Assembly (NCBI RefSeq): GCF_004010195.1
Contig: NW_025214389.1
Location: 8,587-42,819 of the forward strand
DNA from: Chiloscyllium plagiosum
Taxonomy: Eukaryota
DNA length: 34,233 nt
Direction of reading: 5' to 3'
The notes beneath the pieces were generated by a model that was not told the DNA's origin, made no database searches, and saw only the letters and a program-made list of their open reading frames with translations. Shown here one piece after another: positions 3,000-33,525 of the stretch. A program made the translations under genes and the position numbers. Position 1 is the first letter of the stretch. The number at the start of each line of letters is the position of its first letter.

Positions 3000-3587
3000 A
3001 TACATTGCTGTGACGATAAATAGCAGAATAGATAAGGATGGGGAGGGAATTGGTGGTAGGGGGACATTTGAAGTTTCAAAGCATTTTGACATGTTTCAAC
3101 AAGGGCTAAAGATTAGATACGGAGAGAATAGGACTCCTGAAAAGTCAATCAGGCTGGCTATGTGGAACAACTGCTGTTGGAGGACATTCAAAACAAATAC
3201 TTTGCGTGCTGATTTACTGTGGAGAGGCATGAATCCTCTGGAACTTAGGAAAATAAATATCACGTCTTGAAAAGAGTTCAAATTGGAGAACAGGAGGTGT
3301 TAGATGCCTTAAAATGCAAAAAGGTAAGTAAAATCTTGGGACATTATCCGATATATGCAGACATGTGTACTAAAGATGCTGGAGAATTAGACTCAAGACT
3401 AGAGTGGTGCTGGAAAAGCACAGCGGGTCAGGCAGCATCCGAGGAACAGGAAAGTCCAAATTTCGGGTAAACGACATTCATCAGAACTGAGGACTTTACT
3501 CGAATCCTCCATGATCACATCCATCCCAGGACTTTGTGAGAAGCTAGGGAAGAATTTTCAGGGACTGCCGCAGAGGTATTTGCATCA
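3000..3587 (+). mobile_element. CR1 ORF2 fragments (pre-RT tether), interrupted by a PLE piece; appears to continue at ~7420
   Basis: EQEVLDALKCKKVSK, then catcccaggactttgtgagaagctagggaagaa...gtatttgcatcat. Confidence 0.65.
3370..3510 (-). mobile_element. Penelope-like pLTR fragment with degenerate hammerhead
   Basis: gtgctggaaaagcacagcgggtcaggcagcatcc matches 18260-18290 and the reverse complement of the 12830-12860 region; minus strand reads CTGATGA...cccGAAA. Confidence 0.8.
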
Positions 3588-4263
3588 TACAAAGAACAAA
3601 GACAATTTACAGCTAAGAAATATTCCCTCATCCATCCAAGCCTGAGACGATCCAAATCTACCGTCTAAACCTGTCGCCCAATTCCTAAGCATTAATATCC
3701 GTCTGCTCCCCACCTACTCATGCATCTGTCCTCATGCATTTTAAATAAATCTAACGTGACCGCCTCTACCATCTCTGTTGGCACCGCGTTCCAGACGCCC
3801 ATCACGCTATGTGTGTAGTACTTGCCGCGTGTATCCCCGTTAGACCTTTCGCCTCTCCCCTTGAAAGCGTGACCTTTCGTTTCTGAATCCTTCGCACTGG
3901 GAAAAAGCTTGTATCCATCCACACTGTCTATACCCTTCATGATTTTCTAAACATATATCATGACCCCCCAAACTCATTTTGTTCTAATGAAGACAAACCT
4001 AACCTACTCAACCTCTCTTCATAGCTGGCACATTCCAAACCAGGCAACATCCTCGTAAACCTTCTCTGCATTCTCTGCAAAACGTCCATATCCTTTTGGT
4101 AACGTGGCGAACAGAAATCTACACAGTATTCTGAATGCGGCCGAACCAATGTCTTCTACAATTTTAACATGACTTGCCAGCTCTTATACTCAATACCCCG
4201 TCCACACAGCAGTGGCCCCAACACTGACCCCTTTGGAACAACACTGGTCACCTTTGTCCATTT

Positions 4264-12412: not shown

Positions 12413-12778
12413 TTAACTCCCCCTCCCACTCCACCGAGGATATGCAGGTCATTGGACTCATCCACCGCCAAACTACAACAACGCGACGGTCGGAGGAGGA
12501 GCGTCTTATCTTCCGACTGGGAACCCTCCAACCACAGGGGGTGAACTTGGGCTTCACCAGTTTCTTCATCCCCCCTCCCCCCCCCTTGTCTCAGCCCAAT
12601 CCCTCCCGCCCGGCACCGCCCTCCTGACCTGCAGTCTTTTTCTTGACCTCTCCGCCTCCATCCTACTTCGACCTATCACCCTCACCTTGACCTCTTTCCA
12701 CCTATCACATTTCCAACGCCCCTCCTCCAAGTCCCTCCTCCCTACCTTTTATCTTCTCCTGCTGAACACTCTCTGCTC

Positions 12779-12814
12779 ATTCCTGAAGAAGGGCATGTGC
12801 CCGAAACGTCGAAT
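12779..12814 (+). ncRNA. minimal type I hammerhead ribozyme (PLE-associated), core intact
   Basis: auuc-CUGAAGA-A-GGGC(AUGU)GCCC-GAAA-CG-UC-gaau: stem I auuc/gaau, 4-bp stem II, palindromic ACGU stem III. Confidence 0.85.
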
Positions 12815-13969
12815 CTTCTGTTCCCTAGATGCTGCCTGACCTGCTGTGCTGTTCCAGCAATAAAGTTTCAGCTTTGATCTCCAGCGTCTGCAGACCTCAC
12901 TTTCTCCTCAATCCTGACAAACCTCCCAGTGTATCGTGTTCTGCAGCCACTTTAACCCTCCCCATGTCTGCAACCTCCTCCAGTCTCTGCAATCTCCTCT
13001 ATTGCTGTAACGTTCTCCTGTCGCCACAATGCTCCTCAACTCTACTTGCAGACATCACTACCTGGCTTCCTAGCCCTGTTAACGCCAGAAGCCACTAAAG
13101 GCATCCATGTACCTGAAACATCCTCATTATTGCTGGATCCAACTCCCGTTCTTACAGCTGTGACTTTATGTAACCTCTTTCAGTCTGAAGAACAATCCAA
13201 TGCCAACATCCCTCTGTATTGCAAACTTCAACCAGTTCCGAAAGCCATCACCACGAACGTCACTATCTGTTACCTCTTCCAGCTCCTCCCTATGTCTGTC
13301 CGCCATCTTGCCCCTACTACCCTACCTATCACATTAATTCACCTACAAAACACGAATTATTTCAATAAACGTCTTCTATCTTTACAAATCAGTCTATCTC
13401 TCAGTAAACTCTTCCTGTTCCTAAACCTCACCCTGTACATAATAACTCTGAGAGTCATGAGAAACATTTGGTCATGACCGCCTCAAGCAAATGACACAAT
13501 ATTTATTTCGACAAATAATGTCATCTCCAATAATCCTTCCTATCACAGTAACCCTCCCAAATCTCGTCATACCTCCCTTTTCAAGTCTCCTCTTCCAGAG
13601 TCCATGAGCTGAATGACCGCCTGGATCTCTTTAACCTCGAGTGGAATGCACAGGCCACCCTATCTCAGTAACATCCTCCAATCATTTAAAAACTCCCTAT
13701 CCGTCTCACCTCCTTCAGTCACTCCAACTCGTCCTTTCTCTGTTACTTCCTCCAGTTACTCAAGAACTCGCTACCTCTGTAATCTCCTCCAGTCACACCA
13801 AAACTCCCGATCTCTGCAACGTCCTCAATGCACCAAAACTCCCAATCTCTGTAACCTCCCCAGTCACTCCAACCCTCCCTGTTCCTGTAATATTCCAGGT
13901 TAGCCAAACACTCACTATCTCTGTAAGCTCCTCTACACACTCCAACCCACACTAACTCCCTCACCTGCC

Positions 13970-17844: not shown

Positions 17845-18375
17845 TGATGGTATGTGGTCATCACTGGAGACCATTATTTTTTGCCATCTGTAATTAACTG
17901 GAGAATGTGGTGGTCAGCTGTCTTCCTGACTCATTGCAATCCTTTGAGTGTCGGGACAGGCAGATTGGTGGTCGAATGGAGCGTGGTTTGGAGAGGACCT
18001 TGGAAATGCTGGTATTCCCATGCAAGTGTAACTCCTGTCTTTCCAGAGTATATTTGTTCCGGATTTGTGAAGTACTGCTGAAAGGGCCTTCCTGGCTAAT
18101 CTCAGTGCTGCTCGTCAATCTCTTTCTTACTCATTCATTCATGCACGTGAGCATTGCCAGCTGGGCCAGCATTTATTATTAATGTTGAGTTGACCCTGAG
18201 AATGTGGTAGACAAAAGTGAGGATTGCAGATGCTGGAAACCAGAGTTTAGATCAGAGTGGTGCTGGAAAAGCACAGCAGGTCAGGCAGCATCTTTCATCA
18301 GGGTTTTTGCCCGAAACGTCGATTTCCCTGCTCCTCGGATGCTCCAGAGAATGTGGTGTTCAGCTGCCACTGCAC
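17845..18375 (-). mobile_element. 3' ends of a second CR1/L2-clade LINE family (tail shared with DeuSINE); two fragments
   Basis: gagaatgtggtggtcagctgtcttc and attcattcatg..ctgggccagcatttatt..ccctgagaatgtggt. Confidence 0.6.
18209..18346. mobile_element. short inverted PLE pLTR insertion with split hammerhead
   Basis: 11-bp TSD gagaatgtggt (18198-18208, 18347-18357); minus arm ends ttcatcag, then plus arm ggtttttgcccGAAACGTC. Confidence 0.85.
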
Positions 18376-23960: not shown

Positions 23961-24221
23961 ACGTTTCAACAAACCAAATGAAATGATAGCTTTAAAACGT
24001 ATGAACCATTCAGGAGATGTGGCTGCAGTGTGGCCACGAGTGAGAATTATGGTTATTCAAGGGTTTTAACAATTTTTACAGGAATGATAAATGGACCAAC
24101 ACACTGAAGTCGCCCTGTATATTAAGGGCGGAATCAGTAATATTATGATACTCATCAATTGACGCACTACTCCTCAATGCCCTCTCTCGTCTTCCGTGCA
24201 CATTGATCCTGTCAGATATTG

Positions 24222-24422
24222 TTGAAACTTTATTGCTGGAACAGCACAGCAGGTCAGGCAGCATCCAGGGAACAGGAGATTCGACGTTTCGGGCACAGGC
24301 CCTTCTTCAGGCACAGGCCCGAAACGTCGAATCTCCTGTTTCCTGGATGCTGCCTGACCTGCTGTGCTGTTCCAGCAATAAAGTTTCAACTTTGATCTCC
24401 AGCATCTGCAGACCTCACTTTC
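24222..24422. mobile_element. young inverted PLE pLTR insertion with hammerhead core
   Basis: 15-bp TSD tcctgtcagatattg (24207-24221, 24423-24437); 74-bp near-perfect inverted arms 24221-24294 / 24317-24390; right arm nearly identical to 12799-12907. Confidence 0.95.
24279..24310 (-). ncRNA. hammerhead core lacking the 5' arm of stem I
   Basis: CUGAAGA-A-GGGC(CUGU)GCCC-GAAACGUC-gaau, preceded by gugc instead of auuc. Confidence 0.6.
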
Positions 24423-25091
24423 TCCTGTCAGATATTGGTAAACTTTGAAAACTTTTGAAAATATGTACAGAGACTACTCTGTACACTGTCTGTACTGGAT
24501 AACTAATGATTTTTTAAAAGCACGTACTCTGACAATCCGGAGACTACAGGACTTCCGGTGCAGAACTTGGCCCTGTTAAAAAATGTCTTTAGGGATTCTG
24601 CCTCTACTCCACTTCCATACGTGACTTTTATATCCCGACCAACTCTGGGTTAAATAACAACTTACCTCACCAATTGCCTAATATTTCAGCCCATTAAATT
24701 AAATATTCGTCGTTGCAAACAGAGCTCTAGAGTCGGAGCAAGATATTGTCTCCCTCTCTATGCAGGCCTCTGACAACATGTGCACCCCACTCAAATCACC
24801 TGTCAGCATTGTCCATTCAATTGTTCCTCATAACTGCACTTTCACGTTCACAGCTTAACAGATCTCGTCTATACTTTCTACAGCCCTATTCCATCCTTCC
24901 ATGTGATTTGGTGCCCAGATCTGTACGCAGTACGCAAGCTATGACTGAACTCATTATTTCCACAGATTCGGAATAAGCTTCATACTCTTGCATTCTGTAC
25001 ATTGGCTGGATAAAGGAAATATTGATGTGTCTAGCTACTTGCAGGGATCTACCCACACTGAGATATTCTCAGTAGTTGCACATTAATCCTT

Positions 25092-25532
25092 AGAACATAG
25101 AACATAGAACAATACAGCACAGAACAGGCCCTTCGGCCCACGATGTTGTGCCGAACATTTGTCCTAGCTTAAGCACCCATCCATGTAACTATCCAATTGC
25201 CGCTTAAAGGTCACCAAAGATTCTGACTGTACCACTCCCACAGGCAGCGCATTCCATGCCCCACCACTCTCTGGGTAAAGAACCCACCCCTGACATCTCC
25301 CCTATACCTTCCACCCTTCACCTTAAATTTATGTCCCCTTGTATCACTCTGTTGCACCTGGGGAAAAAGTTTCTGACTGTCTACTCTATATATTGCTCTG
25401 GTCATCTTATAAACCTCTATCAAGTCACCCCTCATCCTTCGCCGTTCCAACGAGAAAAGGCCGAGAACTCAAGATCCCTCTGTTCCTCCACCTCACTAAG
25501 AACCCTACCGTTAACCCTGCATTCCTTATTGT
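25092..25532 (-). mobile_element. young HER1/CR1 3' end with internal deletion
   Basis: (agaacat)n tail, ggcccttcggccc stem, ERRRMRGDLIEVYK..RYRGDVRGGFFTQRVV. Confidence 0.92.
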
Positions 25533-30661: not shown

Positions 30662-30884
30662 CATGAATTGGAGATGCCGGTGTTGGACTGGGGTGTACAA
30701 AGTTAAAAATCACACAACACCGGGTTATAGTCCAAGAGGTTTAATTGGAAGCACACCAGCTTTCGGAGCGATGCTCCTTCATCAGGTGATACTATCACCT
30801 GGTGAAGGAGCGTCGCTCCGAAAACTAGTGTGTTTCCAATTAAACCTGTTGGACTATAACCTGGTGTTGTGTGATTTTTAACCT
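30662..30884. mobile_element. inverted PLE pLTR insertion, second family, with two mutated hammerheads
   Basis: ~90-bp arms 30702-30791 / 30793-30882 with 1-nt spacer; cac-CUG(A/G)UGA-A-GGAGC(NUC)GCUCC-GAAA(G/A)CU(G/A)-gug on each strand; imperfect TSD tactctaagggg / tactctgaggag. Confidence 0.85.
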
Positions 30885-32094
30885 TACTCTGAGGAGGTTC
30901 CATTCGATATTGAGAATATTTAAATCACCCATAACAACAACTCTCCTACATTTTTATTTTTCCAAAATCGCCCGTCGATGAGTTCTTCAACATCTCTACT
31001 GCTATTAGACGTCTGGAGAAAACCCCCAATGACACGGCTGTTCCCTTGTTGTTCCTGACTTCCGCCGATGCTCACTCCATAGACAAACCTTCCTCAACAA
31101 CCTTTGTTTCGGTAGCTGAGATGCATCCTCTGATTAGCAATGCGACATTCCTCCTATTTTTCCGCTCTCCCTGTTTTTTTTTTAAACGTTATAAATCCTG
31201 GAACTTCAAGCAACCATTCCTGCCCCTGTGAAACGCACGTCTCCGTTATGGTCATAACATGATAGCGCCAAGTACTGATCCATGTTCTAAGTTCGTCACT
31301 CTTTATTCTGACGCTCCTTGCGTTAAAGCAGACACACTTGATCCGATCCCTTTGATTCATCGCGTGAGAAAACATCCTGAAAGATTCACTACATCCTGTT
31401 ACTACCCCATCTGCAACTGTCGCCTCTCAGATAGTGAGACTGATTCCCACACCCCTGCCATCTCGTTATCACCCTCCCACACCACACGAGCAAATCTCAC
31501 ACAAGGTACATTTATTCCCCTCCAGTTCAGGTTCAACCCGTCCTTCATGTACAAGTCACAGATTCCCTTGAAGGTATCTCAATCTTCGAGGTGTTAAAAG
31601 CCCTCCCTCCTGCACCAGCCTCGCAGCTACGTGTTGAACTGCATTCTCTGACGGTTCCTCACCTCACTATCTCCTGGCACCAGTAGCAAGCACGAGATTA
31701 CTGCTCTACTCGTCCTGCTCTTCAGCTTCCAAATTACCTCTCTGCAATCACTTTTCAGATCCTCAATCTCTTTCCTGGCTATATCATTGGTGCCGATATG
31801 TAACAAGATTTCTGGCGTCTCACCCTGCCCCTTCAGAATGCTGTAAAACCGAATGGCGACAACCAAGACCCTGGTACCTTGGAGGCAGCATACCTTCCTG
31901 GCGTCCCTTTTCTGGCCACAAAATATCCAGTTAATCTATTGTGTCCCCTACCAGCATTGCTTTTCTATTCTCCCCGTTCCCGTCAGACCCGCAGTGCCAG
32001 GCTCAGTGCCAGAAACCTGACAACTATGACTTCGATCTTACCCACTGAAAAAAATCCCGGCAGCCCTCGTTTCTCTCCGCCGTATTACCTCTCT

Positions 32095-32679: not shown

Positions 32680-33525
32680 AAATGGTACATGACTGGGCTG
32701 AGGCGTGACAGATGGAGTTCAATTCAGAGAAATCCAAGCTGCTGCATTTTGGGAAAACAAATATTTGCAGGACTTCTACACTTAATAGAAATGTCCTCGG
32801 GAGTGTTGCTGAAGAAAGCAACTTTTGAGTGCAGATTCATAGCTTCTTGAAAGTGGAGTCTCACGTCGAAAGGACAGTGAAGAATGCGTTTGGTATGCTT
32901 TCTTTTATCGGCCATTGTATTGAGTACAGGAGTTGAGAGGTTATGTTGCGACTGTACAAGACATTAATTAGACCAGTAGTTGAATGCTACGTGTGATCCT
33001 GGTCTCCTTCCGCTCGGAAATGTGTTGTGAACCTTGAAAGGGTTCAGAAAAGATTTACAAGGATGTTTCCAAGGTTGCTGATTTTGAGCTGTAGGTAGAG
33101 GCTGAACACGCTGGGGGCTGTTTTCCCTGGAGCGTCGGAGGCTGAGGGGTGACCTTATATATATCTACAAGATTATAAGCCCCATGGACATAAATATACA
33201 AGGTCTATTCCCTGGGGTGGGGGAGTCCAGAACTAGAGGGCATAGATTTATAGTGAGGGGAAAGATATAAACGAGACCTAACGGGCAACCTTTTCACGCA
33301 GAGGGTGGTACATGTATGGAATGAGCTGCCAGAGGAAGTGGTGGAGGCTGATACAATTTCAACATTTAAACGGCATGCGGATGGGGATAAGAATAGGAAG
33401 AGCTTGGAGGGATATGGGCTGGGAGCTGGCAGGTGGGACTAGATTCGTTTGGGATATCTGGTCGGCATGGATGGGTTGGGCTGAAGGGTCTGTTTCCGTG
33501 TTGTATATATCTATGGCTCTATGGC
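32680..33525 (+). mobile_element. CR1/HER1 3' part
   Basis: gatggagttcaat, attgagtacaggagttg, gaggctgaggggtgaccttat, gggctgaagggtctgtttcc, tail tctatggctctatg. Confidence 0.92.

Follow-up and report, generated by a model that had tools for sequence, protein, structure and literature searches.

Insertions of Penelope-like elements (PLEs) that carry an endonuclease (EN+) follow a recurrent layout. A canonical EN+ PLE unit comprises a pLTR, an adjacent inverted and 5'-truncated copy, a tail of 30–40 bp and a TSD (PMC8557442, PMC3846280). How the inverted and tandem insertions are formed is described there as still undefined (PMC8557442). Elements of the Neptune clade additionally carry a CX2-5CxxC linker between RT and EN (PMC8557442). 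For PAc (Poseidon, Anolis), it was found that both target strands are cleaved and extended, that two start sites bound the tail, that the protein is predicted to be dimeric, and that ribozyme cleavage is not needed (PMC11167929).

Minimal hammerhead ribozymes (min-HHR) of metazoan PLEs occur as thousands of solo motifs, and opposite-strand pairs lying 100–700 bp apart are already known (PMC4209133). The solo motifs are ascribed to truncated PLEs, with no mechanism given in the accessible text (PMC4209133). In D. virilis Penelope, transcription starts within the pLTR, 46 nt before a 75-nt intron whose end abuts helix I (PMC2377424). In another type of retroelement, LINE-1 (L1), an extra G marks the copied cap in full-length insertions (PMC11702581). 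Inverted pLTRs, tails, TSDs, minimal hammerheads and opposite-strand pairs are therefore not new in themselves (PMC8557442, PMC3846280, PMC4209133). Conversely, no report of a cap-marked common stop at the edge of a PLE ribozyme was found in the literature covered, a search that had most subscription journals and Repbase notes outside its scope.

The locus considered here is a hairpin-shaped insertion in the genome of Chiloscyllium plagiosum. It resembles canonical EN+ PLE units in having a head-to-head inverted copy, a TSD, a tail on one arm only (36 nt here) and a GIY-YIG domain with a Neptune-type linker in its family, and the group differs from them in that most sampled units are only about 200 bp long, with both arms ending at one apparently cap-marked point. 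The hairpin is probably a one-off insertion of a Neptune-type PLE, in which both target ends prime RT at two fixed sites and the cDNAs run off a likely capped RNA 5' end, 4–8 nt before the hammerhead core, to be end-joined head to head.

Penelope-like insertions in the window

The window, that is, the whole stretch of DNA analysed (34,233 nt of contig NW_025214389.1), holds five Penelope-like pLTR pieces, belonging to families named A, B and C here (Table 1). Family A coordinates are counted from the A of ATTCC as +1, with C3 of the core at +5; in family B, +1 is the A of ACAAYCAC and C3 lies at +9. An earlier sequence-only reading had identified the sites in the window as PLE pLTR insertions with a minimal hammerhead, and this identification stands. 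The CUGAnGA core, the extra unpaired base before stem II, the G-C closing pair (G10.1-C11.1), the palindromic minimal stem III and the short stem I are those of metazoan PLE min-HHRs (PMC4209133), and the GAAA core is present as well. Across families A and C the stems are invariant and loop II is variable; stem II differs in family B. No hammerhead model of Rfam matched the window, where only chance miRNA-hairpin matches below the gathering scores appeared (30747-30842). The number of CTGANGA motifs in the window was discarded as evidence, being uninformative alone (34, with 24.6 expected; 4 of 100 shuffles reach 34).

Table 1. Features of the Penelope-like insertions in the window
Feature	Position	Strand	Remarks
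Old single family C arm	3374..3491	-	Ends near core (about 3484-3491)
Longer family A (subfamily A2) copy	12415..12909	+	Passes through ribozyme; GIY-YIG C-terminus, pyrimidine-rich 3' UTR, tail; assembly gap upstream
Minimal hammerhead of A2 copy	12779-12814	+	Putative transcription start at the A at 12779; folding forms stems I and II
Family C insertion	18198..18357	-	11-bp TSD at 18198-18208 and 18347-18357
Left TSD copy, 15 bp	24207..24221	.	Exact repeat of 24423-24437
Inverted arm, spanning +94..+4; outer end at second RT start site	24221..24311	-	100% to reference copy L034
Filler, 5 nt	24312..24316	.	Stem II loop, antisense; sequence vs arm limits
Primary arm, spanning +21..+130; outer end at first RT start site	24317..24426	+	99% to L034; includes ~36-nt tail
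Right TSD copy	24423..24437	.	First 4 nt common to element end
Family B hairpin	30664..30885	.	Primary arm +130..+4 on minus (30664-30790); inverted arm +1 (30791) to +95 (30885)

The genome was searched in a 3.56-Gb assembly with gaps in long repeats. In this assembly the exact 32-nt tail motif of family A occurs 12,026 times and the exact 49-nt motif of family B 7,243 times. Family A encodes a GIY-YIG endonuclease whose ORF ends upstream of the pLTR, as in EN+ PLEs. Pfam PF01541 matched family A copy L042 with 22.9 bits (cut-off 22.6, E 1e-4) and copy L067 with 21 bits, below the cut-off; at 12415-12620, the longer family A copy of the window has the same endonuclease C-terminus as its sister copy L042. 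A C-x4-C-x2-C linker is found in five family A copies (L042, L067, L069, L089 and L165), and by this cysteine motif family A is classed as a Neptune-type PLE. Among the copies recovered there was no full-length element, as the long ones run into assembly gaps, and family B yielded no ORF.

The hairpin at 24221-24426 is a stub of such a Neptune-type PLE. Its arms pair over 74 nt at 99%, and the strand switch at the edge of CUGAnGA, noticed from the sequence alone, was confirmed together with a 15-bp TSD. It had also been read correctly that, at the restart, the stem II loop stands in the orientation of the left arm. The 5-nt filler is flanked by microhomologies of 2 nt (GG) and 4 nt (stem II arm). 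The inverted arm contains the core CUGAAGA at 24304-24310 as well as stem II and GAAAC-GUC, and its hammerhead is probably inactive, since only one of the four 5' bases of stem I is kept. The primary arm lacks CUGAnGA, so that there is no ribozyme on that side. As a separate observation, an ATG at +51 opens a 42-codon frame both here (24346-24426) and in copy L165, crossing both RT start sites into downstream sequence.

Four insertions, this one included, had been cited as folding back at the hammerhead. The description suits 24310 and 30792, which are hairpins; 18300 proved to be an inversion and not a hairpin, and 3485 has no second arm. The 30792 hairpin has arms of 93 nt, an inverted arm that begins exactly at +1, and a weak TSD with a 6-bp candidate only. 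At 18300, the primary arm (+125 to +50, 18214-18292) and the second arm (+12 to +55, 18300-18343) nearly abut, and between them lie 9 nt of the hammerhead core in flipped orientation (18294-18302); one arm ends 45 nt inside the core. At 3485, neither a strand switch nor a TSD was found. To the right of that arm, 76 nt show no likeness to the family A and C references above that of shuffled sequence (35-188 of 200 shuffles do as well), and the sole better-than-shuffle match is an 18-nt sense match to the family B upstream flank. Elsewhere in the window, dispersed inverted copies of other repeats are 73-80% complementary (334-544 with 3994-4203, and 25404-25462 with 33115-33173); these are probably LINE fragments.

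Position of the junctions and the stop before the core

Genome samples were picked by tail motifs, blind to the junction; because the motifs are exact, the copies are young, and all lie in the first part of a single contig. The family A sample covers the first 90 places of the motif list (93 motif matches, in the first 26 Mb of contig C1) and the family B sample 70 places (72 motif matches). The 93 family A matches comprise 55 with an adjacent inverted arm (one added by hand), 15 solo copies with a TSD call (one of which, a tandem with a false call, was dropped, leaving 14), 18 with neither, and 5 that touch N gaps. A TSD of 12-17 bp was called in 46 of the 49 short family A hairpins. In agreement with the layout of EN+ PLE units (30-40 bp tail, inverted 5' copy, TSD), the outer ends have two fixed positions, +94-96 and about +130: the inverted arm ends at +94-96 in 36/55 sampled family A cases, and the 3' ends lie at +126 to +135 in nearly all sampled copies of that family. 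Both correspond to sites at which RT starts in PAc, where two such sites bound the tail (PMC11167929).

The inner ends are equally concentrated. Of the inverted copies, 46 of 55 in family A and 36 of 54 in family B (two loci counted twice) have an arm that ends no more than 10 nt from C3, a strong departure from a uniform distribution over 181 nt (p = 3e-34 and 8e-14). Clustering of the junctions at the 5' edge of the ribozyme, as opposed to an even spread, had been anticipated and is seen in both samples. The inversion itself does not set the stop point, since 10 of the 14 true solo copies of family A with a TSD start within the same 10 nt.

Genome-wide exact counts for family A arms with an intact core give 1,909 ends at +2, 2,297 at +1 and 967 at -1, while 6,758 of 11,931 arms (57%) pass -2 and read straight through the ribozyme. 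The ribozyme is thus no barrier, yet 43% of the arms stop within 3 nt. In the family A sample, 23 arms passed the stop window; four of them ended in the next 7 nt and the other 19 were spread over 700 nt. The stop lies at an initiator-like A, 4 nt before the core in family A and 8 nt before it in family B, where it coincides with no helix end and falls 5 nt outside stem I.

An additional base is often found in front of +1. If templated, it would be C in both A and B. In family B, hand tallies over the first 100 rows listed for each pattern gave G 77, T 13 and A 10 before arms ending at +1, and G 22, T 60 and C 18 before control arms ending at +2 (p 4e-15). The corresponding family A tallies, again of the first 100 rows listed, were G 45, A 45 and T 10 at +1, with G in 6 of the controls at +2 and 18 at -1. 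In family C, the first pattern showed a templated T in 97 of 100 rows; with a second pattern the preceding base was G 23, A 17 and C 60, C being templated in some subfamilies. Inspection of 30 family B loci revealed the G in all 19 hairpins and in 3 of 7 solos, carried by 13 arms of the +130 type and 9 short arms. The four solos without it end in A, at least three of them with TSD overlap, and the remaining four loci are point mutants of read-through copies. At four picked junctions (L351-L354), the extra base is present on both arms. The G signal of family A is weaker: among 30 inspected loci there were 12 G ends, and the other arm or the TSD can account for all but 5 of them.

Upstream of the stop, TATAAA occurs at -28 to -32 in 20 of the 21 family B copies that keep upstream sequence (e.g., L144, L121, L131). 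A purine at +1 in an initiator-like context fits the Pol II initiator consensus. These signs suggest that +1 is a Pol II start and that the G is a copied cap; the young junctions would then indicate the RNA start to one base in two families, with both arms copied up to the cap. G would equally result from an RT that adds C wherever an RNA end is blunt, and the +2 control ends, which may be trimmed products, do not speak against this. In family A, stem I has +1 itself as its 5' base, so that the start site and the edge of the ribozyme are inseparable. No RNA start peak was listed in one poly(A) single-cell run that is not cap-targeted and may be from another species (1,375 reads, drawn from about 2% of its total). 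The D. virilis case would suggest an acceptor splice site at +1; this was rejected because no AG precedes +1 and the copies contain no upstream exon. In D. virilis the start lies upstream of the intron (PMC2377424), whereas the start proposed here abuts the ribozyme.

It is unlikely that +1 is instead a real RNA 5' end made by processing, with an exonuclease halted at a protein-bound ribozyme or with recapping, and that the G reflects C-tailing by terminal transferase activity. Some RTs do add C at blunt ends, and the family A end coincides with the foot of stem I. However, the family B end lies outside the ribozyme, and its TATAAA and initiator-like purine fit a promoter. C-tailing is further opposed by four of the 93 family A copies (L105, L084, L062, L036), solo-type copies that start at +29 to +34 near the predicted cut, one of them exactly there after TSD removal, and that show no extra G. 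A minority of templates may accordingly be cleaved RNA.

The sequence-only reading had also proposed that ribozyme structure dictates the inversion point, either because the fold stalls RT or because the cDNA folds back on stem II. Certain details agree with this: the stop of family A and the 5' base of stem I are one and the same, the primary arm begins at +13/+14, the 5' arm of stem II, in 8 of 49 short hairpins of that family, and the joint at 24310 bears the snap-back signature of stem II, as do 6 of the 49 short family A joints. Stem II thus shapes a minority of joints, and the earlier suggestion that it mediates the one at 24310 was upheld. As a general rule, the proposal is not supported and is quite improbable. 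Stalling conflicts with the same stop in non-inverted copies, with the passage of 57% of family A arms, with the different offset in family B (8 rather than 4 nt), with the untemplated G, and with the weak folding of the isolated motif (z -0.8 and -0.6). A fold-back must restart inside copied sequence, so that the primary arm should reach further 5'. Family A shows the reverse: in short hairpins, the inverted arm reaches further in 28 of 49 and the primary arm in 9 of 49 (p 0.003), making the inverted arm usually longer at the joint than its supposed template. In family B the corresponding figures are 20 and 12, not a significant difference (p 0.22). A position immediately after the cap would point to a function of the hammerhead in decapping or as part of the promoter or leader, rather than in setting the junction.

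The two arms and how they may be joined

Arm length is concordant within insertions. Both arms are short, both long or mixed in 49, 6 and 0 cases of family A and in 42, 7 and 3 cases of family B, and subfamily alleles are common to both arms. This concordance would favor a single RNA molecule as template, an argument weakened by shared long-copy ancestry and possible arm conversion; the both-long class is not independent either, as several long hairpins have one junction in common. A C/T difference between arms at +45 (in the window and in L074 and L091) was considered as proof of two RNA templates and dismissed as insufficient, with 17 differences in 3,121 nt against 9 shared non-reference bases.

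The joints themselves are diverse: 24 of the 49 short family A joints show microhomology, 8 are blunt and 17 contain insertions. The same 49 hairpins have 45 distinct junction strings, no TSD core is repeated among 45, and the three repeated strings are the simplest microhomology joints of 1-3 nt. The best 30 genome matches to the 24310 locus, chosen by likeness and left out of the counts, likewise have many different joints. It is therefore highly unlikely that hairpins such as 24310 are a MITE-like family amplified from pre-inverted masters. The label MITE-like, given in the sequence-only reading, is apt for the shape and does not hold for descent of the short class as a unit with a fixed junction, and that all copies stem from one pre-inverted master is contradicted for short hairpins by the same diversity. 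For part of the long class, masters are real: identical junctions recur at -145/-72 (4 loci), -119/-119 (2 loci) and, with filler, -162/-71 (4 loci), and several long family A copies carry identical host flank next to +105. Pre-inverted master loci, as judged from these copies, exist and appear to be copied by read-through together with host DNA; their junctions lie far from the ribozyme. The long head-to-head copies had been picked by repeated spacing in the list of family A arms passing -2. The loci concerned are L038, L050, L393 and L394 (-145/-72), L399 and L400 (-119/-119), and L395-L398 (-162/-71).

The published interpretation of palindromic PLE junctions, proposed for rotifer PLEs, is self-priming on an antisense transcript, which would make the head-to-head repeat (PMC3846280). 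Reads from both strands do exist here and are explained by read-through of host transcripts. Self-priming does not predict the fixed +94 outer end, the extra base on both arms or the longer inverted arms, and as the origin of these hairpins it is very improbable; the present data favor priming by both target ends on sense, capped RNA.

In the preferred reading, with both target ends as primers, the two cut DNA ends would each prime cDNA on sense RNA, at the two known PLE start sites (+94-96 and about +130). Both arms would thus be first-strand cDNAs, to which the fixed +94 end, the extra base on both arms and the longer inverted arm all point. Probably one RNA served for both, and displacement of the +94-primed cDNA by the enzyme primed at +130 would explain why the +94 arm reaches +1 more often. 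The cDNA ends would then be joined, probably by host microhomology-mediated end joining, in which stem II may at times act as the primer of a snap-back (24312-24320 being an example). Without the upstream TATA, short copies would be promoterless; with no ORF either, they would be dead ends, and ORF-bearing copies would come from read-through RNA.

More tentatively, and at somewhat less than even chances, PLEs may perform a step like the retroviral 'strong-stop', in which RT sites lie 95-130 nt behind the cap and a dimeric enzyme, primed from both target ends on one capped RNA, makes overlapping cDNAs through strand displacement that become head-to-head hairpins by the thousands. If true, such a step would explain the inverted repeats of PLEs, their tail, why partial tandems are needed and why solo minimal hammerheads are so numerous, and the mRNA would have the ribozyme at its extreme 5' end.

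PAc offers a close parallel, as both target strands are extended there from two RT start sites bounding the tail, with an uncleaved ribozyme RNA as the template (PMC11167929). In the accessible text of that study, the RNA 5' end is not mapped and inverted copies are not explained (PMC11167929). The thousands of young junctions in this genome can be regarded as a record of the PLE insertion reaction, and concrete predictions follow from them that apply to the in vitro PLE system already established.

LINE-1 twin priming is similar in that the second target end primes a second cDNA, with a TSD, microhomology joints and an extra G at complete 5' ends (PMC11702581). L1 arms, however, abut with an overlap or deletion of 1-10 nt (PMC11702581), as at 18300, whereas the PLE arms here overlap by 70-95 nt, which follows if both arms start at fixed sites close to the cap.

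The units also resemble animal non-LTR retrozymes, which are short, non-coding and PLE-derived and carry a type I hammerhead (bioRxiv 10.64898/2026.07.22.740005). Retrozymes, however, are head-to-tail tandems bounded by ribozyme cleavage (bioRxiv 10.64898/2026.07.22.740005), whereas the units here occur singly or head to head, and they start some 30 nt before the cut site. In the window, the four sites are head-to-head or solo, without head-to-tail tandems of complete hammerheads. Elsewhere in the genome, separate tandem units of about 200-320 bp exist. Retrozyme-like head-to-tail units of about 205-224 bp (L152-L155, L169-L171, L175-L176) recur on several contigs; they consist of the hammerhead, the tail and the start of downstream sequence, with a jump back by microhomology.

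Transcripts and potential for double-stranded RNA

Poly(A) reads include sequences of these families in both orientations, and 92% of those reads continue into unrelated flanks (from about 2% of a single run, whose species may differ). The unrelated flanks fit passive read-through of host transcripts. If transcribed, the 24310 insertion would plausibly fold into a long duplex and provide dsRNA; its predicted fold energy of -172.9 kcal/mol (z -23) is a trivial consequence of the repeat. As a sign of A-to-I editing, A>G and T>C places in the poly(A) reads are confounded by family variants. The genome is seeded with thousands of near-perfect inverted repeats of 70-95 bp, lying within host transcripts. 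Beside two family A insertions, open frames resemble host coding exons (L045:2240-3031 and L088:2047-2688), one presumably glycosidase-like and the other forkhead-like.
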